A DNA stretch of 63,012 nucleotides, filler included, from Perkinsus chesapeaki ATCC PRA-425 (GCA_013115145.1; 3 parts of 3 records of this genome joined end to end with filler, not necessarily neighbours in it), one strand, 5' to 3'. Counted from the whole stretch's first letter, positions 4,671 through 59,768 are shown. Notes: a model not told the origin generated them from the sequence alone. A program made the numbers and translations.

Positions 4671-6716
4671 ATGAGCCCACCGATGAGCCCTAGTCTGGCT
4701 CGTCTTGCCGCGCGGTCAAATGTACATATTCGTGACGTTAAAGTGGTGAGAGATAAGTTACATAAAATGATAGAAGATGGTGGACTTGATAATCTACAGA
4801 TTGTCACCGACTTCGATCGTACCTTAACGAGGTGAGCGGCACTTTCTCCATCCGAAGGAAGTAGGTAACATACTTCCTTCGGATGGTAACCTACTGTAGG
4901 TTCGATCTCCTCATGCGTCTGTTTAATTGGTCCCGTCATATTGGCCCTGTTACCGAATTAGGAAACCATAGTATTTCTCGGTAGTCGTGTTACCGAATGA
5001 CCTACGATCATATATGTGTCTTCGGCGAGGAGTGTTTGGACTAAAAACCGTTGGGGATGTTCACACCAAAATGGGCCAGAAGTCGGTCGTTCGCCCTCCC
5101 TCGCTTCAGTAGTAAATGTAAGGCTCGCCTTCACCGCTGAAATGGTTTAGTACACATGAATATGAACATAGTAACTATCACAAACTGCAGACGAAGAATG
5201 CTCTCTTAGTCACTACGTTTCTCCCGGCGTCAGCGGTCAGTCCTGCCATGGCATCTTCGAGACCTACCCCAAGTTTACCGATGACTTCTTTGCCCGATCT
5301 CGTGCTCTTTTAAATAAGTATCACCCGATTGAGGTGAGAATTATAGGAATATCGATAGACGAATCTGAGATCAGCTTATTCAACCACGTCATGCCAGGTG
5401 CGGTTGAATTCTACCATCTCGTGGGATTTTGTAATTTAGGAATCCAACCATCTATCAAAGATTCCAGTGAACTCTACCACGTAGAATTCCCTGAAAAGAA
5501 TAACCACCGCTCGGAATGGGCCTTCAAGAGGGCGGCGTCTGATTGTCTGTAGCGCGGCTACAGTAGATAGTATTGCTTCGTTGGATGCTCGAATTTCGTG
5601 GCGAAGATCTTTTGTGTGGTCGTCGAATTAGGAGTTGCGATAATAGTGCAAGTACGTGAATCTCGGCGCTACACTGGTTTGGGGCTCCACTGCAACGCGG
5701 TTATACGACGCCCCTTGAAGGGCCCCTTCTGGTTCAATGCTAGTCTGTTCCTTGATACCGTCTCAGATGGATCCCTACATGGCCAGAGAGGAGAAGCATA
5801 AGCATATGGATTTCTGGTGGACCGAGACGCAGAAGCTCATCTGCGAGCAGGAAGTCTACAAACATGGAGTTGAAGACATTGTTGAGTTCGCTAGGTGAGC
5901 CGTTGTTGGAGCCGGCTGCTCCATCGAGCCCCCTTTCATTTCTAATGACGCCATGATTTTCAATTGTACCGTCGGTTCCAGTCCGCTACTAACATGAACT
6001 TGTCGATCCTAACCCACCCCTGGTTGTATCCTACTCGACGTACGGATCCGGCGGGAGCATGACGGTTCGAGTCCATACACTTGAGTGTGTTCGATTGTAA
6101 TGAATCAGCAACGCAACATCAAAACGGGTCTTGCCGAACCCATGTCGTGCACTGTTTGATGCGCTTGATTTCAATACTGCTAACATGAGGTTCTATAATA
6201 TTGGCCAACACCATTCAGTTGGGTACGAAATTTATTACCAGCTCTGAGATGTCCGTGAACCAACCTATGGTATCCAGCAGTGCTGGACCAGCACTATGGG
6301 TTAGTGTCCGAATTTTATGCCGCTTTCCTTAGTATGGTCGATTGGTTCGGAAGTCGTCTCGTTTAGGCAATCCAATAAATTCTCGCTGAGGTCTATGGCA
6401 CCCGAGATGCTTCAATTGGCCCACAAGGACGGAGTGCCTGTTACCATTTTGAGTGCTGGTATCGGTAACATTATCGAGTATGTGCTCAAGTGAGTGACCG
6501 CGGCTGCCTCTGCGAGCTTAGTCTGTTCTGTCAGGGGCTACGACGCTCTTTTCCCAGACAACACCGAGATCGTTTCCAACATTATGGAGTTCGATCCCGA
6601 CACGGAGCGGCTCGTGTCCTTCCGTGGTCCGCAGATTCACTGCCTTACCAAGAAGTCTGCCTTGACCGATTACATCACGCATGATCAGCAGCGGAAAGAA
6701 CGACACAATGTCATCT
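4671..6716 (+). pseudogene. NT5C3: Pyrimidine 5'-nucleotidase copy 2, apparently lacking the last two exons (3'-truncated)
   Basis: In-phase exons 4671-4831 (LQIVTDFDRTLT, HAD motif I), 5210-5333, 5767-5894, 6367-6489 (ILSAGIG) and 6535-6716. No downstream exon encoding LGD/motif IV was found before the next gene. Confidence 0.75.
4848..4886. repeat. Perfect 16-bp inverted repeat with 7-nt loop in intron 1 of NT5C3 copy 2
   Basis: CCATCCGAAGGAAGTA-ggtaaca-TACTTCCTTCGGATGG. Confidence 0.9.
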
Positions 6717-7902
6717 GTAGGCATCGAAGAATTCCCTCCCCTGCTGAATCCGCCGTGTTCCAAAACTCGCGGAATTGTTTTCTCCAGAATGCATTCTCAC
6801 AGCGGGCAGATCGAAATAGGCAACACGTTACTAGTGACTCCGTAAACACTATATATATTTTGTCGGTGTTTCATTTACTTTAGCAACCTTCAATAACTAT
6901 ACAATCAGCGCTTTAATATCTTGATAAGTTCATATACTAACATTATCAACTGTCGGTATGAAAACTCCAGTCTTGTCAGTCTAAAATGACAAGATGATAT
7001 CCGTTGTGAAATATGTGATATGATCTATCTTTATAAATATCTATGATGGGTACTGACGTGTGGGACCATTATATATACTTGTAGTTATAAACTCGCATGC
7101 AAGAATTCACCTTAACGAAATACCGATAATATCTACATTTGCAGGTGGGGAAATTCAATATTATGGATGAATTTGGATCATCTCTCCAGTTAGATAGGAA
7201 AGAGCTATAAGGAAACTCCCCGCGTTGGTTAATTGCCGCAGTTGTAACGTACAAGTCGATAACGCTTCACTTAGATGCATGTCGTAACATGCACCTCCCC
7301 TTATCAGTGAGAGCTAGAAATTATGCTTTCCCAGTTTTGGGTGGATCGTTTGACAGTTATGAGTTATGCAAGAAAGTTGTCATTTTGGCGGACATTTCTT
7401 TGGGCAATCCCATTATGCCGCTCAATACAATCGCATGATTGAGAATACACTGTATAATGTATAATTTAACGAGTCCATGATTATTTAGGCACTCATGGAG
7501 TTAGTCTGCGAAGACCTTTGAACTGCTATGCTAGAACTTTAGACTCGGATAGACTGGTGGTAACTCAATAATTCTGACGAGTGATACTCTTAGACATTGC
7601 ACGGGATACGCTGTACTCGCTAAGTTAACTAACAGTTTGATTTCATTTCGTTGTAACTCGGACGGTGGACTCGGACGTCTTTAAACAGAATGGATCTAGT
7701 GCCCCTGGAGCTGGCCGTTTCATGCGTATTTCGGGGAGCGAGTTGTCAATCTATAAAGATAAACCCGTTCAATTCATCAGCATCTCAGCCGTTAAGCAAT
7801 TAGGACAACCACGACAGGCTGTGCTCTTTAAGAAGCCTAGCCCATGATAGAGGTTCATTGACTCCAACACAAGTATCTTGCAACTGCTCAGAAACACACT
7901 CG

Positions 7903-10900: not shown

Positions 10901-13037
10901 GGATACCAAGCAATGACCACAAACGCGGAAATGACAAGAGAGCTCTGGTGATGATGTGTAAAGATTCGTGGACTGAGTAATATGAGTATCTAGTCCCACC
11001 CAACGCCCCCCCCTGGAAGCCGCAACTCTACAAAAATGATTGATGAGATATGAAACCACAAGGGAGATGAATCACCAGTTAATAATTATCAGCATGCTCT
11101 CCCACCCTACCTGGAGACTATGATTCCCTCCAATTCGCGAGTCGCCGCGTTATTCCTGCCAAGCGCTTTCTCGAGCGACACATACGCAGCCACCAAATCA
11201 TGCACTTCCAGATCTCCAGTAGCAGCCATCGTTCGTACCCTCCGAACGAGCTCTAAGGAATCTTCACAGTGCGAAAAGATACTCTCTGACCTCCAATAAG
11301 CTGCTTAGTAATGCTTCCGTCCTTTTTCCCTTCATCAGCCAGCCCGTCTGCATTCTTTGCGTGGATTGCTGCTAACTTCTGTAGGCAATGTAACGCCACT
11401 TGAATTCCTAGACTTGGCGGAGGCATCGACAGCGGGTCACCCTTCCCCTTTAGGCGACGATCGCGGTATTCCTCCTCTCGCCGAATCACCTGAGACGCTG
11501 CCACCTTGTCGATTTTTATCGACTTGACACTATTTCGATCCCAGTAGAAATGTTATTAATCTCCACTCGCACCAGTAAGATCTCCTATTCCCCTCCGTTA
11601 CACTGAATGAACCCTCCAGCGACCCCTCCTCCTGCTGCTAGGCACACAGGTACCACTCAAGCTCGCTGGAGGCCTTCCAAAAAGCCCTCCGAAAAAAAAA
11701 GTTCCAAAAAATTGCTCCTTCTAGGGTTGTGCGTTGGACCAATAATTATCCCTCAACAGAGCACTATGACATCATTCCATTCAAGCTGTCCCGCCACTAT
11801 TACAGCCAGCAGTCTTTCCTCCACCGCCTTCAATCTAGCATCTGGAATGTGGCGTACTTCTGCTAATGCCTTTAGAACCTGAACGCTAATTCTACAGAGT
11901 GCGGAAAATACCGTATAGATGATATTTCGAGAAACCTGAAATTTACAGACAAATGATATTTGCATCGAATAGATTTTTTTTTCGAAAATTTTACGGAAAT
12001 TCTAAAAAAATTTCAGAAAATTGGTTTCCCCAAAATTCAAGTCGCTGAGCTCATTACCGCTGCCAACGAGTCCGGTTGCAATCGAGCAATGCTCTGGTCC
12101 AGCATGTCACTGATGACTTCCTCCTCGGCAAGAGAGAACAATCGGAGGAACTGCAAAAATGTGAATAAACTACAGCGGAGCGATGCACCATATTACCACT
12201 GCACGGTTATAGACAACGGCCATCTCGTGGGGCTTCATTACAGTGGCTTGCTTGACGAGACTCTCATGAAGATTTTCGTATGCCGGATGGGCCAGAATCT
12301 CCTTGCTGATCCTTCGGACCTGGTGGAGGGAGAGTAAAGAAAAACCGAGACTGTAAAGCAATGCTGTGTCAGGGAAATTCTTCGAAAAAACTAATCTGAA
12401 GGCTGAATCTCTAGGCCTGGTAGAGTCCACCACGCGACGCCGTTGATGCTTACTAATTTTCAGTTGGCAACCGCGGAATTCTGGGGAATTCTGCAGGGAG
12501 AGTTCAGACGGCGATTCTCATCTGAAGTCCCCTGCAGAAACTAATTTTAGCAACAAATAGTTTTTTCCAGTTGGCTCGCTCTGAATTCTCCCTGCCGAAG
12601 TGTCACTTGGCAGCCCCAAAAATCGGTCGGACATTTACTGGATTCTGTATCCGAAATATTGTACTGCAAAGTTTAGGAAATAATAGCTCCAACAAGGCTT
12701 ATATCAACCCCTCTTTTCCTCTCCCTTTACGACCTTCTGTCCGCCTGGGGACGCCGTGGCCAACATTCTGAGAGCGTAGATGGCTTCATCGACCGATAGG
12801 GAGCGAGCGGATGACTCTATGATGCGCATTACACTCATATGTGATTGAGGCTGAAAAGATACAAAATAGCTCAACTTGGAGGCCCCCACCTACCCGTGAC
12901 ATCTCAATGGAAGCCAGCCTCCGTCCTAGCTCTGTATTCGGAGGCATGAGAGAATTGATCCTCTGTGACGCTCTGGCTGGCCGGAATGCCTCTTTCACTG
13001 CCGGACCCACTATTCGGGAGGTGACCGCGGCGGACAT
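7903..13037 (-). CDS. Large multi-exon helical-repeat protein with a probable C-terminal RAP-like domain and a basic N-terminal (mitochondrial-type) presequence
   Basis: A chain of minus-strand ORF fragments bounded by GT-AG. Start MSAAVTSRIVGPAVKEAFRPARASQR. Helical motifs such as MKPHEMAVVYN and IPPSHLLRLISHL. Near the C-terminus ECFAEEGLQLDIWAHSAELLASEV resembles the RAP-domain E..GxxxDI...IAIEV pattern. Several internal junctions are unresolved. Confidence 0.55.
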
Positions 13038-16189: not shown

Positions 16190-16644
16190 ACCCTTATCTA
16201 GCGATCATTGCTAAACAATATGAAAATGATGTTGCCCATATATACTGCGTTTAACGTCGTATAGTTGAAAGTACTCAATCGTAGTCTTTCATTAAGACTA
16301 TCCCCGTGACACACACAGTGATGTTCACTGAACATTGTTCAGGTCGAACCTGATTGAAGAAAACTCGACATTAAGTTAACGGCGTTAACTTAACTCATTA
16401 ACCGACTCATCGAGGACATTAACCGATGATTCATGGAGTTAACGGAGAAGCCGTCCGAGCCAGTCATAATTCCTCAACTATTACCCCCGATACCGTATCG
16501 AATTCGTACGAAGAGCCTCTTCGGCGGAGGAGTTACAAAATCTTGCAAGCTTGCGCAGCCTTGGCAAGTTTCATATATGAACGTTCCTCTTTGCACATTC
16601 CACCGTGAGAATTCTACTGGCTCAAACGATTTAGGAGTTACTCC

Positions 16645-19603: not shown

Positions 19604-22600
19604 ATGGAAGCGTCCTCTGCATCATCAATCAGTGCTGGTGGAGAGTATGATAGAGTCCTGTTAAGGCTGGCATCGACGAATGATGCCAAGTTGCAGCCGG
19701 TAATGAAGGATGTGCGGGAAAAGTACCGGTGAATACGGAATGCCCACATCTTGGGGTCGCCAACAGTATCTTTGGAAGGTGATATATCTATTAGTTATCG
19801 GTGAGCGATCGTCATTCGAGGAAAACTCGCTCACTGACTCTTTGAAAAGAGTTCGCCCTTATGCATTAGTATATAGCTATATAGTCGGATGGTCACGAAG
19901 TGTGGGCTAGGTGAAGAGGTAGGTCAAGTTTTTCTAGTAGTTACCGTTGCCAGGAGGGGGTACAATGTCGTGAATGTATTCCGGCAGGGAGTAGCATCGC
20001 CTTTGGGGCCCAAAGAACCCTGATCAGATTCCCAAAGTTTGATCATCTGATCAGGGCTCCTTTATGTTCTATTGTGTGGATTTTTTCGGGTTGGCCTGGA
20101 GCAGTTTTATTGCTCAGGTCATCGATCGGCTACTCCCGATGGTTTTAAACCAGTTGCAATTGCTGCCGTCAAATGCACCGGCAGCACAGCGAACCAAGAT
20201 ACTTGAGATTGTGAATCATATCCTCTTGCGTCTGCGTGCAAATTCAACGTTGAATGTACCAGTTAAGGAGATCCTCGATCTCTGGTGGAAAGCTGGGGTT
20301 CCTCAAGGCTCGGCATCGTTGGGACAGAAATTGTTCTACAACATGTCGTTGGTGTTTTTGGAGCTGGGTCAATCTCGGATACCTGCGGAAGGTCCCGAGG
20401 CGGAGGCGTTCGCTAAGGACGTCCTATCCGGCTTGGACCGAGTCCCCGCCGATTACCAGCCCTCACTGGCTCTCATGGCGTTCCAACATGTCGGCCGACA
20501 TGGTTCTCGTAAGAACAAGCCCGCTCAAGGGTTCGAACTCGGGTCGGTTGTGTATGAAATGGCGGCAGATTTCCTGTCCATTCCCACTAGAGTCTCAGCG
20601 GGTAACGTGCCGGTGCCGGCGGCATGGCTTACAGGGCAGTCGGCGGAGAGCTGGCGATCGGCTCTCCGAAGGTCGAAGGATGTTACGCGGTCGGTGGAGG
20701 ACTTGGCCAACACCAAGGTTGACGTCGTTGAATTTATCGGTGATTTCGGCCGGCCGAACGAGTCGTATGTTCCGCTTCTGGTGGGGTCGGTGGACGGGTA
20801 TGATAGAGTTTCTAGGATTGCGCAGAGCTATATCAGCCGGATATCTCCGGAGCTTAAGGCTGATGATAGTATCCTAATCGATCGCGTGATCGATTCAAGT
20901 TCTCGGTGCCCGCTGGCTGGCATACCAGCATCTTTCCTGGCGTCATGTGCCCAGACTCTCGCGAGAGGATCTCGGGTCCTGTCGAATGACAAATCTGAGG
21001 TCGAGTCCGTGATGGACATGGTCATCGGTGTGCTGAAGCAAGGGAACTCGGCGAGCACCCAGCTGCAGCGGTCCATGGTAACTCTTTCGACTCGCATTCT
21101 AGAAGCCTCGCCAGAGCAGGCCTATGCGCTGTTGCCTGTGTTGAGCTCTAGAATAGGCTACGGTAGCGAACTCGGCGTCCTCTACCGGCTGGTTTGTGAG
21201 TCCATCGCTCGTAATCGTGGTGATTGGAGCACTGCAGCTCCCTTGGAAGCTCTGGCGAGGCTCCTCCGGCCGAATGGTGGAGGGAACGGACTCACTAGTG
21301 ATAGCGAATGTGCAGTGTCCCTGGCGTATCTTTTATTGCGAAGTCAAGCTCGAGATGAAGCTTTGAGGTTGCTGCGGGAAGCCGTCTATCTTCGGCCCGA
21401 ACCCTCACTGAGGCAGCTGGCGGCGAACTCGCTGCTTAACGGGCTTCTCAATTCCGAGCCTCTCAAGTGGGTGATGGCGGCCATTATTAGGGCAGATCCA
21501 GACGCTGGTGTACGAGACTGCGGGAGACAGCCGGACCCGGCGCTTCTTGGCCCGAGGGCCAGGATGCCTGTCGGAGCTGTTGAGCTGGCCGAGACCGTTA
21601 AAGAGGAGGGAGGGCATCATCGGAGACTGTGCCGAGCTGACTGGTCTTTGGAACAGGGAACTAGTCTGTTGGAATTGCTGACGGCGGCCTGCTCATCCGG
21701 GGTGGTGGAACCCGCAGAGGTTCTATCCGAGGAGATGACATCTTTGATCAATAAAGCAGGTGATGGCGGCAGAATTCACGAAGCTGTCGAAGGCTGTTAC
21801 GTGTGTCGAGAGCTCCCCGACAACGGTGGGATGCTGGACGGGCTGGTGGCACTCGGAGCAACGGGGATATCGGAGCGTGATCGCGAGCATGCTGCGGCGG
21901 CTCTAACGCACCATAAAGATTCTCGAAAGATACGGGCGGATCTCATCGGCAGTTCTGATAGCTCCGCGGTCTGCCTTGGATGCGACATGGTTTCTGGCGA
22001 AGTCGAGCCCGAGTTGGGGGACCGGCTCAAAGAACTCGCGTTAGAGCCGACCACTGCCGCCAGAGACAACGTGGCTGCGCATGCGTGCAGAGCGATCGCC
22101 AGAGCGATTGGAAGTGTTCCGGTAAACTTGGATTTCGTGAAGAGGTTGGAAGATGCGATGACATGTCCTCATCGAGGATCAGCTGTCTTGGAGCTCTTTG
22201 GGGCTGCTGGGGCGCATGACGGTGAAGTGCGAGAGTGGGTGGAACAGAAATGCCGCCAGTTGATTGGCCGGAAGGATTCTGATTTGAAAATGAAGGACGC
22301 TGTTGCGGGCTGTCTGGTGGCGTGCGGCAGTGAGATTCCGGCGGAGCCTTTGACAATCAGGGCTCTCTACATCGTGCACTACTTGAGCGATGCGTCACGC
22401 GCCACGAATTTAGAGACCTTGCTGAGCTGGCTGGATACGCTATTGGCGAGCTGTCTAAAAGAGCCTCCAGAAGATTCCACTGAGCAGGCGGTGCTCGGGG
22501 ATGTGTGCATTAAGACGATGGTTATGGTGTGGGTTAGAGCGAGAAGGTAAGAGATGGTCAAGGGGTAGGGCGGTGGACTGCGTGGGTTCGAACCCTGGTT

Positions 22601-25600
22601 AGTGCATATTTGTATTCGTGAAAATATTAGTGTGTGACGCGAAAACGATATTAATATCAATTCGTTAATAAATAGTAGTAGTGATGAAGGAGTTGTAAAT
22701 CCACAACACTGCTCCTGCTGCTGCTGCTCCTGCTTCGCGATTGTTGAACAGACTCCATCTCCTCGTGGCCTACCTTGGTGGGGCACATGGCGTCTACCGG
22801 GAGTCTTGAAAAGCAGCAGCCTTTTTGTAGATTGCAGTTCCACAGGTCTTTTTTGAGCTCTTTTACTATTACTAGCGGTACTGTATCTGGTATAAGTTTA
22901 GATTGCATTCATTATTGGAATGTAATAATATATAGTTAATGGGTAATATCTGTATTAAGATCCATTTCATAGCCATACCGATATAGTCTACATGGTAATA
23001 AATATTTTTATATAATTGAATAGAATCATAGTAAATATGATAATCTTATTAATTAATATATACTTATAGCTTATATGCTGATCTAGTCTGGACCCTTTCT
23101 TCCTCCCTTAGACTTGATCCTGCCGATGGTGGTCGAGTGGTGTATCAACGGCTCAATACAGCTGTTATCCAAGCTCCAATGGGCGGAAGGAAGAATGCCG
23201 GGGGGCCGAAGAGCGAGGCACAGTTTACGGAGAGGCTTCAATTCTTAAGGGAAGGTGAGGAGATCATCCGACCTTTAGTGTGTTGCGATAGTCATGGCGT
23301 CGTCGTCGCCTCACGGGAATGTGTGTATGGGGGATTGGAAATGATAAATCGGGGTGTGAATTCCGGAGGTGTGGATGAGGATCCTATACAGACAAGTGCA
23401 TCCTCCTTTCTGGGACTGATAAATCCAATTTATATAGGAATGCAATCCTTGGAGATCGTAAAGTGTTCCAAACTTCGAGGAGATACCACGGAGGTTTTGC
23501 TACAAGATACGTTCCCAGGTTGAAGGAGAATGTTGAATGCCTTCCTTTTGGGAACGAGTACACCTCGTTGGAGCCTACCCGAGTCGTTTATTGTTGAGCT
23601 CGAAATAGGGTAGCGAACATTAGGACGATTACTGGCTTGCTGGTCGATGCTCATGAGAATGGAGGAGTGTTGGTGGTGGGGCGGCGAAATAATGTATTCT
23701 TGATAATTACATTCATCATCATTTATAAAAATCCTATATATTTTCTTGTATTTAATCAATCACATCATCCTTCGTATACTTTCATAGGTCATAAATAGGG
23801 AACAGATTTTCGATGAAAGAACGGACATCTGCTCCCGTTCACTCTTATGGCCGCCCCATGGGTTTGCGTCTTCCGTCTTTCCCTCCGAAGTCAACATTGC
23901 CTTTTCAGTGATGGACCTCTCGAGCTGCTCCTCGGTTCCAGAAGTATGCCAATGGCTGGCGTTCCTCATCCTGGACGCACCTGTATCGTCGGTGGCGGTC
24001 CATAATGAGGTGCGGTGGGATTGGGGACCTTCCAATTGACCCGTAGGCTTCAGGTTTCCTGTGTGGATCTGGCTGATAGCATACTAAGATTGCCGGAAGA
24101 TTCGACGGAGGTTGGTTTGATAACAAGGTAAGGAACTGCGCTGGGGTTGTCACAAGATCGACGGCTTTTCCGGGAGTGGGGCAAATTCGTAAAATGATTG
24201 AGAAATCCGAGCCGCCGATGGTCGTCGCGATTCCGGCCGCCCAAGACGCTCCTTACGGCGCGGTATGATGTGGAACGTGAATCTGTGATTGACCATGATT
24301 ATCATTATTACCTGTATTATTCTCAACGGTTGTCGCAGAGGGTATCATCGGTTAATGATGATGCTGCGGGAGCAGAGACTGCTATAACATCGGGGATTGA
24401 AATGAGTTGCTTGTGGTGGGGACTCTTGCCTATCCTTCGATATGTGAGCACGTACACAGCTCCAATGGAGCTGTCATCAATGGAGATTAAGATCTTGGAT
24501 CAAATACGAGATCAATGGAGCTCTCCATTAGCGACCTCTCAATGCTACTATCTCTATCTTATCTCTTCTTATCGGTTAATTCACCACTTCCAGCAACGAG
24601 ACTGTTGTAATATGCACAGGAGTTGTTGTCACCGCCGATGTATCCACGTCTGAGACAGTTCAGGAAGGGCCACCAAAGTCAATGGATGGATAATAAATAT
24701 CGCAGATTCGCTTCATGTTAAACCTGTTAAAAGGTGCAGATGCTAAGTTGAAATCAGTAATCACTCTGCAATCATTACACTGAAATTTTTCCTGCTCCAC
24801 GGAAGATTCTACGTCGCAATCGCCTAAGGAAAATGCAGGGTTCTTGTCCATCAAAGATCCCCGATCTCTCCAACCCTCTCTATCAGGTATCTTCCTCTTC
24901 TCTCCCAAGCCTCTAGTCAGCGAATTCGTGACGCCTCTGTCTCCATACAGTACCTCATACACGCTCACTCGACCAACGGAGATCGTCATCGAGCTGGTCT
25001 GGATAGCCTACGGTTGATGGTGCAATTGCTGGGCAACCCGAAGGTGGCTGTTCGAGGCGCGGCTGCAAGGGCGACAGGTGAGGAGGCTTGGAAGTGACAA
25101 CTTTTGCATGTCGTCACAAAAATCGATTTTCCTTGTTGATTGCATCGAACTGGAATAGTCAGAAGGAAGTGAATCTTAACCTGTAGATAGTCCAATAATA
25201 ATCGGTCACATAAGGTTCGGGCAGTGTCGATCGCCGAAGATATCATCACCGATTTTCGCAGTTATTTTTGGTTGTCTCAGGCATGGTTTTGAGGGAGCAA
25301 AGTTCAAGTTTGAAATGGAGCGATATTAGTGGCATCTACCAGGACATCTGGAACGCCACTGTCCGCCTTATGGATGACAGGGACCAACGGATCAGCACTG
25401 ATGTGATGGACGCTCCCCTGTGGCGCCGCCGAATACAGGTGTTTCGATCAGGTCGGGACCTTGGGCCGGATACTCAAGTCTACGACGGTGAGGATGTGCC
25501 ATGAATGCCCCGATGAATCTTTGCCCGTTATTCTGCCGGCTCTTTACCACACCTTTGATGTGTATAAATTCGCCCAGCCAATGTGTTTGGAGGTAGGCAT

Positions 25601-28464: not shown

Positions 28465-29588
28465 ATGCCAGATCACACTAATGAAAGTTCATCAGCAGCC
28501 GTGAGCAAGGACGAGGCCGAGCCCTATTTTTCGATGGGCCCGGACACTTTGAAAATACTTCTGTCGATGCATAGAGACCACAGGGAGAAGCTGGCTGAAG
28601 CAATGTTGAAGGGCAAACTTGCACCGGAAGGTACGTGCTTCATACCGTATTTTCCTTTTTGTAGAGTATTTTGAGGGTATACCTCGCCAACTCTGGCTCT
28701 ATTCCGCGTCTGATTCAATCGACGTGTTTCGTACCGTACTGACCTCCCAGTTTATTACGCCAAAGGCTGCTTCAGGCTATGGTAGCGTTGCACATGGCCA
28801 ATTGGGTCAATTTTCCGTTTTTCCCCGAAAATTTCCGTTTTCCAGTTTTTTTTCAGTGCAAGGGCTACCGTGGCTACACTTATATAATCGGGTCGCACAT
28901 TAGACGGAATATTCCCGCCGAGTTCGACTCTCGGCCGTGCAGTGTTGGGGCACACTAGGACACATGCATCGAGGGCAGGGGGGGGGCGTTGGGCGAGTTT
29001 CAGCCGGAGATAGATATCCTTGCATAAACATGCTCGGGAAAAAACCGGCGATCATACGCTCCGGCCCGCAATTAGATAGTCGTGCTTTATCTACGTTTTC
29101 CTTATTATTTAGGTACCGTTATCTTCCTCCGTGGTGGTGCCCTGCAGTCCGTTTATGACTCGGATACAGATTGGGACTTCAAGCAAGAATCTTACTTCCA
29201 GTAAGGGCAACGCCCATCTGAAGTTGCTTATAGTATGACCGTTTCAGATACCTTTTTGGTGTCAAGGAGCCTGGCTGCCTTGCTACTATCCAACTTGATT
29301 CCTCTGCTCCTCGTATGCACAAGTAAGAATTAGTCTAGGAAACCCCTTTCGTTTTATTTGTTGCTGAGGATTATCGAAATTTCCGAAAATTTCTGTGAAA
29401 TTTCCCACTTATATCGGAAATTTCCCTTTTTTTTTCGGAAATTTTCCTTTTTTTTCGGAAATTTTCCACTTTTTCAATTAGTTTTTTGTATCATCGTTTC
29501 TCAGATCTACTCTCTACATCCCTCGCTTCGACTCGACATACGCCACGTGGATGGGACCAATCAAACCCGAGAGCTGGTTCCAATCGAA
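28465..29588 (+). CDS. PEPD: Xaa-Pro dipeptidase (prolidase), first four exons; the remainder is lost in the assembly gap
   Basis: Exons 28465-28630, 29113-29200, 29248-29322 and 29505-29588 give PYFSMGPDTLK...GTVIFLRGG...DWDFKQESYFQYLFGVKEPGC...STLYIPRFDSTYATWMGPI, the prolidase N-terminal domain. Confidence 0.9.
28917..28935 (+). repeat. tRNA T-arm-like stem-loop in prolidase intron 1
   Basis: GCCGAG-TTCGACT-CTCGGC: perfect stem with a TTCGA loop. Confidence 0.5.
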
Positions 29589-42830: not shown

Positions 42831-43054
42831 TTGATCTGATATAACTGTTGTTGAGGAATGTCATATTTGATGGTGTCTATCATATGTAAACTTGTTTATC
42901 GACTTGGGTAATACTCCTGTTGTATAATATCAACCTAATCGCCGCTACTTCACCATTGTCACTCTCGTCGCGTTGTTGTGTATTATCATTCAATCGACTG
43001 TTTCATTCTTTATCATTTATGTTGGATGAAGTGTGGCAATAAAAGTAAGGTAGG

Positions 43055-43120
43055 AGGGATGGAACCGGGGACCTTTTGGATGGGAGGAGGAAGGCCTAAC
43101 GGTTTGACTATTGTGGTCGG
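43055..43120 (-). repeat. tRNA-like element upstream of and antisense to the ERD2-like gene
   Basis: Minus strand TAGTCAAACCGTTAGG...AAAAGGTCCCCGGTTCCATCCC. Confidence 0.5.
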
Positions 43121-43149
43121 CAGTCTTACTGTTTATCTTTTCTCGGCTT

Positions 43150-45387
43150 ATGGAGGACGTATTTCTCTTCGAGCTTGGATACGGCATACAACTGGCGGCT
43201 TCGCTGTTGCTGTTGTATAGAATAGCAACAATGAAGAATATATACGGATTGTCGATCGATACACAAGTTTGCTTCCTGATGGGTAAGCTGGAAAGATATT
43301 TTAGAGGTTGACTTTGTACCCTCCTCATGGAACGAGGAAATTGCCCTCCTTGTCGAGTGTGGCGGTGCTAACACTTTCTCGCATAGCCATTCTAAATAAA
43401 AGGCATGAAACGGTTGATCGATTTAGTATTCTCACTGGCGGCACGAAGTTGACGTGAAAATAATGCGAAAGCGGAAGTCTGTGTTTGAGTATAGACGGGG
43501 CGGACACGGCAAGGCGCCTTGGGAACATTCAGGCGTGGGAAAGCTTAAAATAGGGCTTCCGGAACTCCGCGGAATCTATCCAATATTAAGTGGGGGAAGG
43601 CGAGGAGATCGGGCGGATGAAAGCTTCTCTCTCCGAGAACGTAGGTGCCCATACGCATCCAATCCAACTCTTGTATAATAGAAGGATAAGTTAATAATTA
43701 ATATTCTATGAACCTAACTTCGGGTTAGGGTCGTCTAGGTAGTAGAATGCTGTGATGGTGGAGTAGGTTGTATATGTTAGTTATCAATGATTATGTCATT
43801 TAACTTTATAGTGCTGCTGCTGAGTAATGAGGTATCATTACTCCATATGAGTGTGATTACTATATTTACAGTAGTATATTGTACTATTAAGCTTATCCAT
43901 ATTGCTGGGTCCGATGAAATGGTAGTGTTAACAGGTACGTTGTCCCGGTTTGTGTGGATGATGGATACTCGTTTGGTGGAGACATGGTTTTCATATTTCG
44001 AGCTGTGGCTCAATTTAGCAGTTCAGATGGCATTGTGTTACTATTGCTACATGTAATATAAGGAAGGTGGAGCATGTATCTTTCTCAAACAATTCCGCCG
44101 CTCGACCTTCGCACTATAAAGAAGGCGTTTCCTATAGAGTGCGGTGAGGGAATCTTGGAGGTCAACGGATGCAACCGGATGACAGATGGATGCGGTTGCC
44201 GTGAGAGGATATTCCATTGCCATGTGCGCCGGTGCTATTAAAGTGGAAAATATTGTATTCGCAGAAGGATATGTTTTGTGGTTCTTTTTTCTCAACGAGG
44301 AATGCATTCCTCGATTCTGAGTAAATCTCTGATGGGACTTCGCAATTTCAGAGGCGGAGATGGTTGATATGATTGCACTGTACGTTGGCCAACACGAAAA
44401 AATTGCTCATTAGTGTGTAGCGCAGAGGGGTGATCATTTCAACTTTCCGTTGGGGGCCTCGTTGTTGAACATACCGTAGAGATCGATGGAACCTCCCTAT
44501 GTATTTTCAAGCATGAGCTTCGGACATCCACCCATGTTCGAATAGTGTTAGTTATTTAGTTACTGGTATACGACAACAATGCATGCCCCACGTTACCTTC
44601 GTGCCCCGGTATTAGCAGCAGTTGCATTGTTATTGGCTTTCCTATTCCATCCGGGATATGAATGGTTATCTGGCCAGGTAATACATTGTTTACGTCATTC
44701 CGTCCCTTGCTGCACTCTACAGTGTATGTAGCCAACGAATTGATGTCTATCTTGACCGCTATCGGTAAATTGATGTGAACCCTATCCGTAAATTGATATC
44801 TTTCTTCTTCAAAGGTAGGCTTCGAAAAGGTATAGTAATCTTAGAGAGTCTTTCTACTCTCCGCGGTAGATGATATCGCGAACTGCGGTGGATGTAATTG
44901 ACGTGATCTACATTATATCATATTTGTCGTCTTTCTTCGACTGTAGCTTTTATCAGGTATTAGTAGCTTTTACCATGTACATAGAGGCAATGGGACTTTT
45001 ACCTCAACTTTGGTTAATGAGGAAAATGATGGATGTAATAATATTCAATAACCATTCTCGTCAACTACCCTGCTGTTCCAGATCGAGCCGATCACGTCTC
45101 ATTACGTGGGGTTGTTGGTGATATCTCGGGCGGTCCGAATGGTCTTTTGGGGAGTGCTTTACATGCAAGTGAGTCATCGAAAGGTCCCTAGTTCGATTCC
45201 TGGTCACGGTGTTTCTCTGCCAGGGAGAGCATTTCTTGTGTTTGTTTTTGGCGGATCTCTTCCATACTTTATTTTGCGCCGATTACCTCTACTTGTGGTG
45301 CAAGAAATTGAGGTAGTGTTACGGGTGGGTTCAAGTTGACCTAAAGATTCCTTCAGGACCGGAGGTCGTCTTGTCTATGCTCTCTAG
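43150..45387 (+). CDS. ERD2: ER lumen protein-retaining receptor (ERD2/KDEL receptor-like), 7 exons
   Basis: Exons 43150-43282, 43935-44052, 44560-44677, 44957-45034, 45082-45168, 45224-45312 and 45357-45387 all join in phase; motifs GLSIDTQ, FTMYIEAMGLLPQL, SHYVGLL..SR, HTLFCADY. Confidence 0.88.
45169..45223 (+). repeat. 55-nt intron made largely of a tRNA 3'-half-like sequence
   Basis: gtgagtcatcg-AAAGGTCCCTAGTTCGATTCCTGGTCACGG-tgtttctctgccag. Confidence 0.7.
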
Positions 45388-45492
45388 GCTGGGGGTGGTT
45401 GAACGATCGAGAAAGGGCCTCACCGCAGCTGTCATATAAGTGCCATAGTTTCTTCAGTCGAACGAGGCTATGTGTTATTATTTCATTCAATA

Positions 45493-45513
45493 GGTCGCAG
45501 GTTCAATTCCGCG
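45493..45513 (+). repeat. tRNA T-arm/B-box-like motif between ERD2 and the JmjC gene
   Basis: GGTCGCAGGTTCAATTCCGCG. Confidence 0.45.
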
Positions 45514-45532
45514 TGACTTCATTTCAGTTTTT

Positions 45533-48316
45533 ATGATCATTTTTCTATTTCTACTAGCATCAGCGGCAGTTGGCTCCCGGGAGGGTGAAATCCTGGGTGA
45601 ACTACAGTACAACACTGGCGGCCTTGGTAGTACTTGGATGGTCGTCTTATAGTCAGTTGGGGTAGTGGTACCTTTCCTTTGACTCCGTTCGCTGGCGATA
45701 TATGGTTGTGGTTTATCTCCACTGGTGATTCAGTTGTTCAATGCAACATATCTTGTGTATTCAGTGTGTATTGTTATATGTTTAAAGCTTGTCACCCCAC
45801 AAGTTTCAGAACAGAACTCTCAAAATTGGCTGAGAAATAAAATTTGCCTAAGGAAAAAGCACGCTCCTTAATGACCGTATGGCGAGTAAGATTAAGATCA
45901 AATATCTCCGTTCTATTAATCTCAATCAACACTTACATTTGAACTGATTTTATTAGTTCCAATAAACTGCACATTTTCAGATCTACTTGTAGTGATTTTT
46001 CGGATCTAGGTAGAGTACATTACTACAACTCGGAGGATTCACTAACATCGCAGACGTTCGCTGATCATATAAATAAAGGTCGGATTGAATGCCAAGGGCC
46101 TCCTTGATAGGATGTCATCCAGGCGATGTCGTAGTAGTTCGCGGGGTAGCGAGCAGTTGGCCGATAACTGGTAGCAGCTGCGAAGACTTTTGTACTAATG
46201 AAGAGCTGGATGGTATACAAATAGAAAGGCTGTATGGGGAGGAGGATGGCACGTGAGACAGAAACCGGTGAATATCTTTGCAGTACGTCACCGTAGTAGT
46301 AATGGACGATGCGCTCGAGTATAGTGGGCTACTCGATTAGAACTGAGTACTCAAGCACGTTAAAGTGATTGAGATGCCTAATATTGCTACTCGAATGCGA
46401 TATCATATTATCGAGTTAGATGGCAACGTTCTGCCGCTGGCTCTGTGATACCCCTGTTGTGGAACTAAGCTGCTGGTGAAAACTGATACACATTTGGTGA
46501 AATGATGCGTTCATTGATGACCTTCATCTTTACTTTTCAACGTCGTTCGAAGTAATGACTAATTTACTTCTGCCTCTTCCGCGACTAAAGTGTTTTCGAA
46601 CCGAGTGGAGGGGAACTGGTTAATGTGGTAATCTAGATAGGAATTAGCATGTCCCGGGCGGTAGGTTCGTGCCGATCTACAGTGACGAGTGCTGGGACAA
46701 GCCGAATGCTACAGTGGCAGGCGGGCAGACTTCTCCTCGGTAATCAAAAGGTCCCGGGATCGATTCCTGGCTGGGATGTTTTGGGCAGCTATTGGGCGGT
46801 ACGAGACACTTTGGAAGGACATCCGAGAGCACGTCAGTGGATTGTTGATTCAACAAGACTGCCGAAATTCATGGCCAGTCGGGGGAACGAGAAGCTGTTT
46901 GAATGTAGCACGCTCAACCTCCGTGGCGAATTATCGTCGATGTTAGTGGGGAGCGAGATTTGGTTCACCCCCGAGGGATCGGGAGCCAAAGCCCACGCGG
47001 ATTCCCATGCACAGGCGACGGCAGCGGTGAGGCTCGGTTGATCGAGACGGCATTGGAGCTGGTGGTGAGGCAGTTTCAATTGTCTGGAAAAAGAACGTGG
47101 AAGCTGGCTGAGATGCCAATGTTCCCCCATCCAACATTGCGAGCACACCTATACGACTCGACGCCATTCCGGTGGACGCCGGAGCTTGAGATTACACTAG
47201 GGCAAGGAGATGGCATTTTCATTCCGCCAGGTATGACCGGAAAACTGAAATCTACAGTCGAAAGCCCTTTCTCAATTACAATACTTGTATAAGTAGATGC
47301 TGATTAGGTATAATCCACGAGACAGGTCGAAGCCCTGATGCTTTGGTGGGTTGTGTGGCATCGCTGACGGTCCAGTTTGACAATCCAATGCCATGGGGAT
47401 ATTATAGACGTAGAATGGCAGCTATTAGGAAGGCAGGCGACGGTCGAAATATGTGGAGACTTATGGTGGATCTGGTGAGGTCGGTGGTGGTGGTACGCAA
47501 TCAGTGTGTAGTGTTTTAGGCATCGGGAGGGCAGTTGGCACCATCGATGAAGAACTTTCCCTTCATAGCGTCGTCCGGGTAAAATAGTCTAATGGTATTA
47601 TTGGTGTTCATCAAGCCTAAGGTCGTGGGTTCGATCCATGCAGATGTCTTTTTAGAGTCTTCTACAACGTCACAGTTCCCTCAAACTTCGCCAAGCAACT
47701 TCCTGCTCTCCTAGCCACCGGCCCTGGACCATTCACCACTGCTTGGACCAAAGACTCCATCGCATTCGGCGTCGACCCGTATAGTCTATTCCACGACAGA
47801 GGTAGCCGAAATCTCCACCGTCCTGCCGGCCACGTCGAAATATGTGCAAGGGCTCCTTTACGTGTGTTGCTGAGAAAAGGGAATCCGGGGGAATGTGACA
47901 CGCCCGTTTTGTGAGCATGTCTTAATATTGAAGAATGTATTCTGTGACGGGCGCGAATTCGGAGGGGCTCTCATCGAGGGCTTCGTATATTCTGGTATGT
48001 AGATGGTGACGGGGTGGTGACACGTGAAGAGATCGAAGAGACCTTCTTGGAGTGGCATGCTATGGAGATGGATGTTTTAATTGAAACACCGCCAGTGGCC
48101 AGATCGTTGCATTATTTCCCTCGGTGAGTTTATCAACCAGTTCTTGCGACGACCAGGTCACCGAAAAGTGATTCTCGGGGATTGAAAAGAAGTGTTGTTT
48201 GGAAAATGCTCTTGACTCTCCTAATATTAAGATACCCTCTCACCGATAGAATAGACGAGTTCGAGGCTGAGATGTTTAATAACTATCTGAAGAGAAAGCG
48301 AAGCGATGAGCTTTGA
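45533..48316 (+). CDS. JmjC/cupin 2OG-Fe(II) oxygenase with an EF-hand and C-terminal SDEL (predicted ER-lumenal); 5' junctions partly unresolved
   Basis: In-phase exons 46789-47026, 47074-47230, 47308-47474, 47520-47578, 47656-47801, 48003-48123 and 48232-48316 give IWFTPEGSGAKAHADSH, FQLSGKRTWKL, LGQGDGIFIPPGIIHET, DRDGDGVVTREE and KRKRSDEL*. Upstream exons encode KGDVVVVRGVASSWP. Candidate signal peptide MIIFLFLLASAAVG at 45533. Confidence 0.75.
46740..46788 (+). repeat. 49-nt intron made largely of a tRNA 3'-half-like sequence
   Basis: gtaatc-AAAAGGTCCCGGGATCGATTCCTGGCTGGGA-tgttttgggcag; closely resembles the ERD2 intron at 45169-45223. Confidence 0.65.
47579..47655 (+). repeat. 77-nt intron that is essentially a whole degenerate tRNA-like sequence
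   Basis: gtaaaa-TAGTCTAATGG (A box)...AAGGTCGTGGGTTCGATCC (variable loop/T-arm, B box)...tctttttag; the flanking exons join in phase. Confidence 0.75.
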
Positions 48317-48936
48317 GCATGATGGGTGTTATGAGACAGTGTGTCGAGTTCTGAAGTCGGGAGGGTCTGTAATGATTGAAATCGGTAACGTGAGATTTCA
48401 CCTGAATGCCAACCTTGGGAGCATCCCCGCCAATGGGCAGCCATAGGAACCTTCGCCTAGTGAAAGAACTTGCCTTCCGAAAGATACATGGGCAAAGAAA
48501 AGAGCTCGGGCAGCACTGTCATCACCGGAAACTATAAATGATGAAGAAACAATCAAATATCACATCCCGACAAGTCGGGTACTGTCGGCGTTGATCGACA
48601 GCAGCAACAAGCTATAATAATTACATTGATACCTGCTAAGATGGTCACGAGTATTATAAGGATAATACGATATATGGTAGATATGAGGCAACACATCTAA
48701 GCTAGAAGGTAGTCCAAATCCCTTAATGGTAATGGACGAAGTTATAGGCTACTGCGAATGATATTGATGTACATGTTAAATGAATACCCCCGAAAGTCCA
48801 CCCAATAGCCCATTTAGGATTTAAAACCCAACATTTGACGAGCCACTTCTGAGGCTTTCGATTTCGTTCCTGCAGTTGCTCATCATCATCATTGCCGTCG
48901 TAGTTGTATACCAGAAATGAGTGCGCAATGTGAAAC

Positions 48937-55669: not shown

Positions 55670-57060
55670 ATATCCACCCTTCCTCGACCAGTAGGCGCGG
55701 TCGCATCAGATCGGCTGAGATCTGAGGAGATCCTCGAGTCCAGAAGTGCACGAATTAAGAACAGGTGAAGGAGCTGCCGAACATATCAGTTGACGGCGGT
55801 CCTCAATCTCTATCAAGTTTACCATAATTCCCGGATTCCGCATTGTCCATTCAGTGTGATACTTCGACGGTCAAGAGATGTTCCTTAGGGACACTCCTCA
55901 CCGAAGAATCATCATCCAAAGCGACGAGGCCAAGCAGGAAACGCGTCGAGCGATCGCCAAGGTTTTGAAAGTAAACCAGCCGAAGATCGGTTCAATAATA
56001 GAAAGTCAGATGTGAAATAGTTCAAATGAGTTATTAAGTGTATTCCTCTTGGGAACATCTCATCCGCGGCACTCGGGTTCGATCCCGGCGCCCGACGATT
56101 TTCTATATTTCTCAGCAAATCGAGGGGCCCTATCCATCATTTCCTCGCGGGTTGAAGTTGAGTGCGATCGTGTCAGTAATGCATGAGATGAACCAGTTGG
56201 AGCAGCAGAGCGAGCATCGCCGACGAGACACTGGCGAGAAACGCATTCCATATAAGATGTATTTTCATGACATTTGGTGACGTCATTCCTTCTTGTTTCT
56301 GATCAACTATACGTTGAGTTCTCAAAGTGTACTCTTTAGTTTGAGCCTTCAATGCCAGCATCAAATGATGCCCACAAGTGCACCCGAATCTTGCTCCTTA
56401 TTGAGGCGATCGTAGCTACCGTATTATTGGTACGAACCTCCTCTTTACGATTGGTACCCTATTTCCATATCAGATTCTGGGTTTTGTTCTTATCGCCGCA
56501 CCCATTCTAATTCTGGCCCTTATAACATCCCTGTGTGCGGCTGCTGGCTGCCTCTGCAATCCGCGCGGTATGAACCGTAACGCAGAAAGTGGAGGAGCGG
56601 ATGTCGGCGGTACGCCCGACTGCCCAGACGAATTCCCCTTGTATTTGTCCTTCAGTGATTACCGTACCATCCCCTACACCACTACGTGATAGTCTAGGTC
56701 TTACTCTAGGGGAGCGCAATAGGGTAAGCTCTCGGCACCGGGGATGTGAATGTGTTTTGTCAGTTGCTGCTCGACACGACAAGTCCACCCCAAGCCATGC
56801 AGATTCTTGTGAAGCGAAGGGCGATCGACGAAAGTTCGCGTGGGAAGCCATCAATGCAGATTGAGAATGACAGCTGTTCGATATGCCTTTTACCTTATCT
56901 TGAGGGCGATTCTTTCGGGCGTCAGTTGCCATGCGGCCACATATTCCATGTAGCATGCATCGACAGTTGGGCCGACAAACAGGCGGTGTGCCCGCTGTGT
57001 CGGGAGAGTTTCTCGAAAGGATTTGATACGAAGGGAACGATTTTTCAAGCAGCAAATTGA
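55670..57060 (+). CDS. Transmembrane RING-H2 E3 ubiquitin ligase, multi-exon; 5' end unresolved (probably ~55250-55450)
   Basis: Terminal exon CSICLLPY...LPCGHIFHVACIDSW...CPLCR (C3H2C3); upstream hydrophobic exons ILLLIEAIVATVLL and ILGFVLIAAPILILALITSLC. Confidence 0.78.
56012..56095 (+). repeat. tRNA-like element in a RING-gene intron, abutting the acceptor at 56115
   Basis: gtgaaa-TAGTTCAAATGAG...CTCGGGTTCGATCCCGG; the start resembles the JmjC intron at 47579. Confidence 0.6.
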
Positions 57061-57210: not shown

Positions 57211-57292
57211 GTAAAATTCGTGGCAATAATAGACTAGCGAGGAGTATCGCTAGCCTACCTTTCGTACGACCCAGGTTCGATCCCTCCGGCCG
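57211..57292 (+). repeat. tRNA-like element downstream of the RING gene
   Basis: gtaaaattcgTGGCAATAATAG...GACCCAGGTTCGATCCCT. Confidence 0.5.
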
Positions 57293-57528
57293 TCGAAGTT
57301 CGTCGTAAGAATATTGTCAGTACCATAATAGCGTTATGCTACATAATGTTGAATGAGGGAACCAGTGTGTCCCTTAATCAAACAAGCCCCAGTATGATTA
57401 TCTTCCGTCTTGCTTGACTACTGGGTTAACACAATAAACATTCAACGGAAGAGACAGGGTTGTTACGTAGAAAGCGACATCACGACGCTTATGGTTAACG
57501 TTGAGGAACAGCGGCAATTGGCTATTAT

Positions 57529-59768
57529 TTATACAGCGGCACCTGCTCCAGCGGCCTCCTCCTCATCAAGCAGTGGGCTGCGAGCTGATTTCAACCTGAA
57601 AAATAAAACGTCTTATACTTTATTGCGGATAACAATCAATTTACATGTCCTCCTTTTCGCGTCTGTCCAAAGCCTCCTGAGCACACTTATTGAAGTCACA
57701 TCGGTAAAGGATCAAACCGTAACTGAAGGGCAGTGATGAACACTGTGAGCGATATGACTTACGCAGTGCAAGTGACGGCCATACCGATAACAGATGCCCA
57801 CCAGATACCAGCAACTCCCATGGCAGGGAGAGCACCCCAGCCAAAGGCAAATACGTAACTGAACGATAAAGATGAAAACAGTGACCTGAGGATCGGCTTA
57901 CCCAAGAGGAAGGCGAATCAGAAGCATGGCCAGCAGCTTGTATGTCGAGGCGCGACCCTAAGGAGTGAGTGAGAAGTAGATGGAGATGCGGTGACCAACC
58001 TGGAGTGCGCAGCCACGGAGGACGCCCTCCTGGCAGGCTTGCATGGCATCGAAGATACAGAAGACGGAGACAGCCAAAAGAGCAGGGCAAAGGATGTTGA
58101 GAACCTGCTTCGACATAAGATTCTTCTCAACCGTTGATGCATAAGCTCACCGCAGGGTCTCTAGTGTAGAGGTATGCAACATAGTAACGGAATTTGCACA
58201 TAAGGAGGGCCACGCAAATAAAGCAGATCAAAGTGCCACGAACAATCTTCCGGTTGAAGAGATGGGCGGATTTAACATCACCGGCACCGAGGGAGTTACC
58301 TTACAAGCAGATAAGTGCAGGCAAAGCAGCGGACAAAACCTACCAACGAGAGCACTAGCACTCTGACTGATACCGCATGGTCCCATATAGATAATGGAGA
58401 CGATGTTGGAGGCTGCAACGTGAGCGGCGAGAGCCATGGGACCGACCCAACCGGCAAAGACGGACTAAATAGGAGGAATAGAAAGCTATCGGGTAACCCT
58501 AAATCTGCTGCCCACCTGAACCTCATAGGCCCACCATTCGCTCCACATCAACAAGGCAGATGGGATGGCTAATGCCACGAATTCCCAAAGGTTATGAAGA
58601 CTCTCAGGAGTCCAACCATGGGCATGGGTCTCGGGGTGGAGAACAGCCTGCCAGTCAGGAGTCTTCGTGGAAAGGAAGGGACGACAGACTCACCGCGTAG
58701 AGCTCCAACAGGATGAAACGGCCCCATTGAGTGCAGGTCATTGCAATACCAACACCGTAAGCACCGAAATGGAACCTGAAGTTGATAAATGCCTCACCGA
58801 GAGAAAACAACAAGACAGATAGTTCCAATTGTCAAGTTTTGAAGCACAACAACTGCCTAGCAGGCTCACCTCGCGTCATGCATAACTTTAACGCCACAGT
58901 ATGTCGGCGGTCAGACAGTTTGAGGCGCCTACTTACTTGAATAGGAAAAGCCAACAGAAGAGGGCATGTCCACAACCGGTGATGGCATTGACGTAAAGAG
59001 GTGCCTCGGGCAATCTGTGAGACCTAAGCTCATACCGACTTTTCCACAACAATTTCGCGAATATGGCTACCTCAGGAAACTGCACATAGCGTTGTACATG
59101 AAGAAGGGCCAGAGTCCCCAGTTCATACCGCGAACGTAGCTGACAGAACGCCGAATTGAAAATAGCGAGATTCCCATAGACCTACTCCGCGGCGAGCTTC
59201 GAGGTGAGGGGGTCCTGGTTCATCCATAGAAGGATGGGCTCAGTGTAGAACCTGAAAGGTTGGTTATTCTGTGGCGCAGCGGTCAGGAACTTACATGATG
59301 ATAAAGCAAGGAACGGAAGCGATGGTACCGACGATACGAGCTCGGTTGAAGTAGATGAGACCAAGACGAGGGTTACCGGCACCGACTGCCTGGCTGACAA
59401 GAGTATCGAGCACCTGAATAAGTCAGAGGGAATCGAACCTGGGTGTATAGAGATATAACAGAGTTTTAACTACTAAACCATATTGGCGGTACTTACAGAC
59501 ATAAGGCCAACACCAATACTAAATCCGAAGACGTTTTGAATGACGGAGCCAAGACCAATCGCACCAAGCATATTGGAGTCATTGGTGGCCGAAACAAAGA
59601 AGATAGTAATAACGAAGATAGAGTACCTGTGTGGTAGTACAATACTTCTATCAGTGATACGTACATGACTAGGAAACTGATCATGTTGGGAACGGCCAGC
59701 TGCATTATCTGTACAAAAGGCGATTTCTTGCTCGCCTTCTCGAGGCGACTTTCACCGTTGGAGGCCAT
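57529..59768 (-). CDS. MATE-family (SLC47-like) efflux transporter, many short introns
   Basis: Spliced QIMQLAVPNMISFLVMYSIFVITIFFV...LGAIGLGSVIQNVFGFSIGVGLMSVLDTLVSQAVGAGN, typical of MATE proteins; C-terminal RSPLLDEEE...AV*. Confidence 0.88.
59414..59496 (-). repeat. 83-nt MATE intron that is essentially a whole degenerate tRNA-like sequence
   Basis: gtaagtaccgccaata-TGGTTTAGTAGTTAAAA (A-box/D-arm-like)...ACCCAGGTTCGATTCCCT (B box)-ctgacttattcag; the exons join as GLMS/VLDT. Confidence 0.75.

Follow-up and report, generated by a model that had tools for sequence, protein, structure and literature searches.

We analyzed a 63,012-nt window of DNA (the whole stretch, filler included) from the clam parasite Perkinsus chesapeaki ATCC PRA-425 and found that it contains decayed pieces of transfer RNA (tRNA) genes, many of them in introns of unrelated protein genes. 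The window is three contigs joined together, with runs of N at 29670-29769 and 61274-61373, each around a 12-nt AT linker. Gene neighborhoods across these two runs may be artificial, and the first linker cuts a prolidase-like gene. All counts given below are for this one window rather than for the genome.

The main host genes are those for a JmjC-domain protein, ERD2 and a protein labeled MATE in the initial annotation. The JmjC gene (45533..48317, plus strand, start at 45533) has 11 introns and encodes 432 amino acids. Removal of the introns gives a frame with 305 of 432 residues (71%) identical to the Perkinsus olseni protein P0001, and the Pfam JmjC domain was found on the P. olseni protein. 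No Perkinsus-like JmjC locus was present in the metagenome contigs searched. The ERD2 gene (endoplasmic reticulum lumen protein retaining receptor; 43150..45388, end approximate, plus strand) was identified by Pfam and by exon joints in contigs. It has 6 coding-region introns and encodes 217 amino acids. After removal of these introns, 195 of 215 residues (91%) are identical to P. olseni P0016. One 279-nt intron in the final list of ERD2 introns replaces three small ones that had been placed by eye. The gene labeled MATE (57540..59770, ends approximate, minus strand) has 14 introns, with joints in contigs, and a 483-residue open frame; a Pfam search with three unspliced pieces did not confirm the label. 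Other pieces lie in genes for ECM29, a RING protein and the prolidase-like protein. An exon of RING is 99% identical to a P. chesapeaki protein and an exon of ECM29 is 100% identical to another, and these database gene models were probably made from the same DNA and so are not independent support. ECM29 had no match among the longer proteins searched. The prolidase-like label comes from a weak Pfam match (AMP_N, E 0.021); the exon had no match in PDB.

The pieces were detected with profiles made from tRNAs of ten virus records, from which tRNAs containing the motifs used to search the window had been removed. A hidden Markov model (HMM) was built from 98 unrelated tRNAs and a T-arm matrix from 140. 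Background was estimated from 30 block-shuffled windows for the HMM and from 100 shuffles for the matrix. At 10 bits or more, the HMM had 5 matches in the window, compared to a mean of 0.03 and a maximum of 1 in the shuffled windows. There were 7 matches at 8 bits or more (mean of 0.3 in shuffled windows) and 11 at 6 bits or more (1.2). The top six are at 47584, 45481, 22556, 46729, 45177 and 59442, the last on the minus strand. The matrix gave 4 scores above 16 (shuffle mean 0.23, maximum 2) and 10 above 12 (1.45 expected). When sequences were shuffled within introns, six pieces had p<0.01 in the sense orientation, and the prolidase piece had p of 0.013. This test, the boundary-repeat test and the edge test used a list of 78 introns; the three ERD2 introns dropped later carried no match. 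We retained ten copies. All ten are in non-coding DNA (P 0.001, for a set that was partly chosen by eye).

It is very improbable that these are chance matches to a short motif. Several results would fit chance. ARAGORN called no tRNA gene in the window, and none of 13 Rfam matches (E up to 10) was a tRNA. With a covariance model, the best match had an E of 0.11, and the prolidase piece scored 11.1 bits. Rfam and the structured covariance model are insensitive to such pieces. Single matrix matches are also noisy: one with a score of 15.4 falls inside an ECM29 coding exon. On the other side are the 5 matches against 0.03, the non-coding location of every copy, and A-box-like motifs that are correctly spaced in four copies. 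Chance is contradicted for the six strongest copies. The sequences resemble tRNAs beyond chance and lack tRNA structure, as tRNA pseudogenes or fragments do.

Of the nine intronic sites listed in the initial annotation, seven (ECM29, prolidase, ERD2, two in JmjC, RING and MATE) hold. The two NT5C3 sites, 4899 and 6064, scored 9.0 and 8.5, and 7.95 matches above 8 are expected per shuffled window; we excluded them as probable chance. A strong hairpin at 4845-4889, in NT5C3 intron 1, is just upstream of the first. We likewise excluded two matrix matches that score above 12, one at 2340 and one at 20537, within the ECM29 exon. Antisense within-intron matches with p<0.01 were also rejected: two mirror sense hairpins and one has a negative score.

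Comparison to viral tRNAs also indicated tRNA sequence. In viral contigs, the exact 19-nt core of the JmjC 47579 piece was inside an ARAGORN tRNA at 51 of 58 loci, and the 16-nt core of the ECM29 piece at 113 of 122 loci; 113 of 120 such tRNAs were tRNA-Leu. The corresponding numbers were 18 of 42 for MATE and 2 of 4 for ERD2. Further exact searches for tRNA type found nothing in metagenomes; two viral searches gave no match and one match that was not a tRNA. A search of genomes gave two matches, neither a tRNA, and another of viral sequences gave three, one of them tRNA-Asn. Alignments to tRNAs picked by motifs from the window are biased by that selection, and the enrichment tests avoided such tRNAs.

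A piece takes up nearly all of each of four introns (49, 55, 77 and 83 nt), in which 4-12 nt remain after tRNA position 73. Thus, the claim that the element fills almost the whole short intron in four cases was borne out, and these four introns are built from tRNA sequence. The 49-nt JmjC intron (46740..46788, plus strand) has the top matrix score (22.7) and contains tRNA positions ~35-73, a Thr-like 3' half, followed by TTTT and GGGCAG. Its best alignments, to tRNA-Thr(TGT), begin at the anticodon: the donor GT is on anticodon positions 35-36, and the donor GTAA aligns to the anticodon loop. The 55-nt ERD2 intron (45169..45223, plus strand) has positions ~31-73 plus a T-rich end. It is of the same type and is 84% identical over 31 nt to 46740-46770. 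The 77-nt JmjC intron (47579..47655, plus strand, placed by frame) is a near full-length decayed tRNA gene with A and B boxes and the top HMM score (18.9 bits); its donor is at tRNA position ~2-3 and it ends in TTTTT and then AG. The 83-nt intron of the gene labeled MATE (59414..59496, minus strand) is also near full length, with A-box-like and B-box motifs (HMM 9.8 bits; within-intron shuffle p 0.001).

The introns around three other pieces are long (565, 482 and 369 nt), and their splicing is predicted. The ECM29 piece (22547..22606, plus strand; HMM 11.2 bits) is tRNA-Leu-like, with the D and T arms kept and the anticodon and variable arms deleted. It begins exactly at the donor of the predicted 565-nt intron (22547-23111). 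The prolidase piece (28913..28942, plus strand) consists of a perfect T arm plus a remnant of the acceptor side and is midway along a 482-nt intron, 28631-29112 (matrix 13.3). The RING piece (56018..56097, plus strand) is a decayed full-length tRNA-like sequence followed by a T run (matrix 13.2, HMM 6.6 bits). It is inside the one intron (369 nt, 55971-56339) of the annotated model P0002, which was probably made from the same DNA. The donor proposed earlier at 56012 is not the annotated one, and an intron at 56012-56115 was neither confirmed nor excluded.

Three copies outside coding-region introns had been overlooked. One is antisense, just upstream of ERD2 (43045..43110, minus strand). It is near full length, covering positions 8-73 and then TTTT (HMM 8.0 bits; best alignment, to tRNA-Gly, 41 compared to a shuffle maximum of 31), with an A-box-like TAG 46 nt before T54. 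It fills a 79-nt GT..AG stretch (43045-43123), a putative intron just before the ERD2 start at 43150, with position 73 at the GT. The second, a 3'-half piece between the ERD2 stop and the JmjC start (45481..45521, plus strand), has a perfect B box followed by TTTCAG and is the second-best HMM match (14.9 bits). It is possibly in an intron of the 5' untranslated region or in an outron. The third, between the 3' ends of RING and MATE (57230..57295, plus strand; matrix 15.6, HMM 7.2 bits), is a decayed full-length tRNA-like piece with an A-box-like motif 46 nt before T54.

Evidence for splicing differs among the introns. Of the 75 introns in the final list, 20 have some support from RNA, 29 were placed from proteins and 26 were set by eye. 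The contigs used are from two runs of one study, taken as RNA by guess, and do not cover the JmjC or RING pieces, a gap that counts neither for nor against splicing there. Contigs of both runs skip the 83 nt of the MATE-labeled intron, with CT..AC ends. The ERD2 intron is bridged (45169-45227) by a divergent contig of one of the two runs, X2, and is also required by the P. olseni ERD2 protein (91% identical). Both JmjC introns (49 and 77 nt) are required for the 432-residue frame that matches P. olseni (71%). The ECM29 intron was placed from the frame and a distant homologue, with ECM29 domains on both sides, and the prolidase intron was set by eye.

The pieces come from several kinds of tRNA gene. 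Best tRNA matches differ among copies and include Thr, Leu, Met/Ala, Gln and Gly. The 46740 and 45169 copies are Thr-like 3' halves that start in the anticodon loop (donors at ~35 and ~31). The ECM29 copy is a Leu-like gene with its middle deleted, and other copies are near full length, four with A-box-like motifs 43-46 nt before T54. In seven of ten copies there is a TTT within tRNA positions 73-80, compared to 8.3% in background, resembling the terminator of RNA polymerase III (Pol III). Within introns, the T run that follows the piece also serves as pyrimidine tract. Five of the seven T runs adjoin a real or possible acceptor, so only the ECM29 copy and the antisense ERD2 copy, which do not, are independent support for a terminator. 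Two other copies away from any acceptor have no T run. None of the ten encodes CCA after position 73.

None of the ten copies folds into a cloverleaf. Fold z-scores of nine are between +0.9 and -1.8, and the tenth (-2.8) is a hairpin unlike a tRNA. The suggestion that the sequences were kept for a structural role is not supported. We also found no high-identity family. An all-against-all BLASTN of the 75 introns gave one tRNA-bearing pair (84% over 31 nt), and the best pair of copies shares 26 of 35 positions. The copies have no shared sequence outside the tRNA part, and there are no further copies in the window. There were no target-site or terminal repeats beyond those of other introns: splice sites could slide by 1.4 nt in 5 introns with a tRNA edge and 1.8 nt in the other 73, and the four filled introns have no inverted termini.

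The B box is better preserved in the pieces than the T stem. Among the ten copies, the B-box core has 2 mismatches in 70 positions, which is partly due to ascertainment, and the T stem has 17 of 40 pairs broken. This is no more than a hint of a Pol III or TFIIIC role. It is possible, though unlikely, that pieces were kept as putative TFIIIC-binding sites and tolerated in short introns of compact genes. No uniform rate of decay gives an intact core with broken stems across the ten copies (joint P <=0.0002), and there is a B-box half in every copy, partly as a result of how copies were detected. In addition, tRNA-like repeats in Caenorhabditis elegans mark extra-TFIIIC sites (PMC6950938). However, copies were detected by means of the B box, and matches that are weak or due to chance look the same. 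Among the five strongest copies free of indels, the difference is not significant (joint P up to 0.08), and truncation just past the B box would yield the same pattern.

The orientation of the pieces was largely as initially described. All seven copies in coding-region introns are in the sense orientation (P 0.016). With the near full-length antisense copy upstream of ERD2, the count is 7 of 8 (P 0.07), and the statement that all copies are sense does not extend to it. Similarly, within the window, the enrichment over shuffles that had been anticipated was found for the pieces, and the two NT5C3 sites did not share in it. About one intron in eleven (7/75) has a tRNA mark. Introns of up to 90 nt (4/42) carry pieces as often, per intron, as longer ones (3/33), and taken together introns show no clear enrichment relative to the rest of the non-coding DNA (7 of 10 copies vs 42%, P 0.07).

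Comparison to P. olseni bears on the age of one filled intron. In a P. olseni JmjC cluster of eight members, three partial models stop at IGLGG and two have GDVVVV as their start. In the alignment, each point coincides with an intron of P. chesapeaki, and IGLGG corresponds to the tRNA-filled phase-2 intron at 47579. This intron position appears to be common to P. olseni, as judged from the protein models, and because those models end at the aligned position, the intron is likely older than the split between the species. A neutral relic of that age is unlikely to keep a 19-nt exact tRNA core when the proteins are 71% identical. The piece at 47579 is probably younger than its intron, or constrained. 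In addition, the orthologue of the 47579-47655 intron seems to be a point at which several P. olseni contigs (P0013, P0015, P0017 and P0011) break off, which may mean that it contains a repeat, perhaps a tRNA gene.

Based on these results, the account we favor, tentatively and at somewhat under an even chance, is that decayed pieces of several types of tRNA gene were pasted in singly and that in short introns they likely replaced most of the interior of an existing intron. The tRNA origin of the pieces and their supply of most of four short introns are supported by the profile enrichment and the near-complete filling. The source would be the many tRNA gene copies of the genus, with pieces inserted one at a time into non-coding DNA; in Perkinsus marinus some tRNA genes are present in hundreds of copies (PMC3706591). 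The template would not be mature tRNA; it would be a tRNA gene or else a pre-tRNA that was still unprocessed and carried the oligo-T terminator. Joining could be by short matches: the T run of the terminator to the pyrimidine tract, and, on the donor side, GTAA or AGT of the anticodon loop, or the tRNA 5' end. Survivors of selection would be those that keep a donor and place the T run before the AG, which would favor the sense orientation and not require it. The pieces would be passengers that serve as intron filler and splice signals. Consistent with this account, there are also copies in long introns (3/33) and outside coding-region introns (three).

Several points weigh against the replacement of intron interiors. 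Short introns hold 4 of 10 copies and only 6.3% of non-coding bases (P 0.002). In some introns 10-15 non-tRNA bases are left, so replacement needs both an insertion and a deletion, and creation would be one event. The ECM29 piece, in a long intron, also begins exactly at the donor. Pure neutral decay does not predict the excess of intact B-box cores over T stems. The shared position in P. olseni covers one of the four filled introns and comes from truncated protein models, not DNA. The tRNA types were judged against tRNAs of phages and giant viruses, not those of Perkinsus.

A less probable alternative is that the pieces created the introns: a piece of a tRNA gene would have landed in an exon and brought a GT (from the anticodon loop or the 5' end) and a T run, with the AG coming from flanking sequence. 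Such events would differ in age, and some would predate the split between P. chesapeaki and P. olseni. Four introns are almost wholly tRNA sequence, the 46740 donor is on the anticodon GTAA, and the antisense copy occupies a stretch that runs from GT to AG, with tRNA position 73 of the copy at the GT. Furthermore, 4 of 8 introns of 49-90 nt contain a piece, compared to none of the 34 that do not exceed 48 nt (Fisher P 0.0006), and there is the per-base excess given above. In contrast, the 47579 position appears common to P. olseni and its piece looks young, boundary repeats are no longer than those of other introns, and there is no near-identical family. Also, three Perkinsus species were scored as having no introners (PMC9860276), by a method that needs families of at least four similar introns. 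The intron-generating system proposed in the initial annotation is unproven, and it is somewhat disfavored for the one intron, 47579, for which it can be tested.

It seems quite improbable that the pieces are remains of tRNA genes that once worked within introns, nested or released by splicing, and were then trimmed towards the usual 38-48 nt. This would fit the 7/7 sense orientation and the donors within ~9 nt of tRNA position 1 in JmjC 47579, MATE and ECM29. The ends of three short P. olseni contigs are at the orthologous intron, as they would be if it contained a repeat, and such tRNA genes are known in C. elegans (PMC4999229). However, the window contains no intact tRNA gene and one copy is antisense. 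The 5' acceptor strands are replaced by donor sequence, and two copies begin in the anticodon loop.

The window has other repeats and genes. On the plus strand at 30347-33898, a reverse-transcriptase open reading frame (ORF; Pfam RVT_1, E 1.4e-10) is followed by a second ORF, which weakly matches an integrase (E 0.013), and then by a 161-nt direct repeat (34044-34204 and 34409-34569). This element looks like a DIRS-type tyrosine-recombinase retroelement. Nothing links it, or the Dada transposons of P. marinus, to the tRNA pieces. A repeat unrelated to tRNA, 22 nt at 95%, is common to introns of two unrelated genes (12851-12893 and 49430-49531, both minus strand); a longer form, found by eye, is in a gene gap (39283-39320, plus strand). 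Sequences 1-86 and 6649-6734 are 94% identical and belong to tandem copies of the pyrimidine 5'-nucleotidase (NT5C3) gene. An intronless gene at 39649-42461 (plus strand) encodes an SPX and citrate-transporter-family permease with a TrkA-C domain, probably a phosphate transporter. Directly after it (42511-42830) is a tandem repeat of ~65-nt units with internal near-palindromes. A perfect 56-nt palindrome (2439-2494) is beside an ORF (1443-2183, minus strand) with no Pfam match. Two tandem intronless aspartyl-protease-like ORFs are at 16609-17784 and 18072-19040 (plus strand); the first has a weak Pfam match and the second looks interrupted near its start.

In a literature search that did not extend to subscription papers (on the Perkinsus genome, and later ones on introners), we found no tRNA-derived spliceosomal introns and no such pieces in Perkinsus. 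Short interspersed nuclear elements derived from tRNAs keep the A and B boxes, lose the structure and have a T-rich end. The Perkinsus pieces differ in that they have no tRNA-unrelated body, no tail like that of a long interspersed nuclear element, no target-site duplication and no shared consensus.

The CeRep3 repeats and tRNA pseudogenes at extra-TFIIIC sites of C. elegans (PMC6950938) are similar to the Perkinsus pieces in being decayed, tRNA-like and non-coding, with A and/or B boxes. An intact B box, typical of such sites, is present in the Perkinsus copies, partly by ascertainment. The Perkinsus pieces differ in filling 49-83 nt introns from donor to pyrimidine tract and in coming from several tRNA types. 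Human nimtRNAs (PMC7722341) are also tRNA-like sequences within spliceosomal introns. They are of mitochondrial origin, keep and need the cloverleaf, and promote splicing, whereas the Perkinsus pieces are nuclear in type, no longer have the fold and themselves make up the intron. In C. elegans, tRNA gene bodies are found inside introns of protein genes (PMC4999229), and these are intact and expressed, unlike any of the Perkinsus copies. Dada transposons are known from the same genus, in P. marinus (PMC3706591), and insert at the tRNA A box, which is at or near the start of several copies. In the window, where no search was aimed at Dada, neither its transposase nor its termini were identified, and a link between Dada and the pieces is speculation.

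It has long been asked where new introns come from, and the sources that are well documented are transposons. Introners (PMC9860276), which derive from transposons, resemble the Perkinsus pieces in that one recurring kind of sequence constitutes entire introns of unrelated genes. They are also spliced out, as are the MATE and ERD2 introns in contigs and, by homology, those of JmjC. P. olseni, P. marinus and P. chesapeaki were all scored as free of introners (PMC9860276). The Perkinsus pieces have no family of at least four introns similar at both ends and, unlike many introner families, no target-site or terminal repeats, and because of the lack of such repeats and of a high-identity family, they are not introners. 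Several host tRNA genes served as their templates, and a gain of introns is only a candidate. It is conceivable, if doubtful, that host tRNA genes are a source of new Perkinsus introns that does not involve transposons, with the anticodon loop or 5' end providing the donor and the terminator becoming the pyrimidine tract. If so, this would be a new source of introns, and one that screens based on similarity would miss because its templates are many and decayed. If only the interiors were replaced, it would still follow that a tRNA gene can supply the material to rebuild an intron of 50-80 nt, its Pol III terminator acting as the pyrimidine tract.

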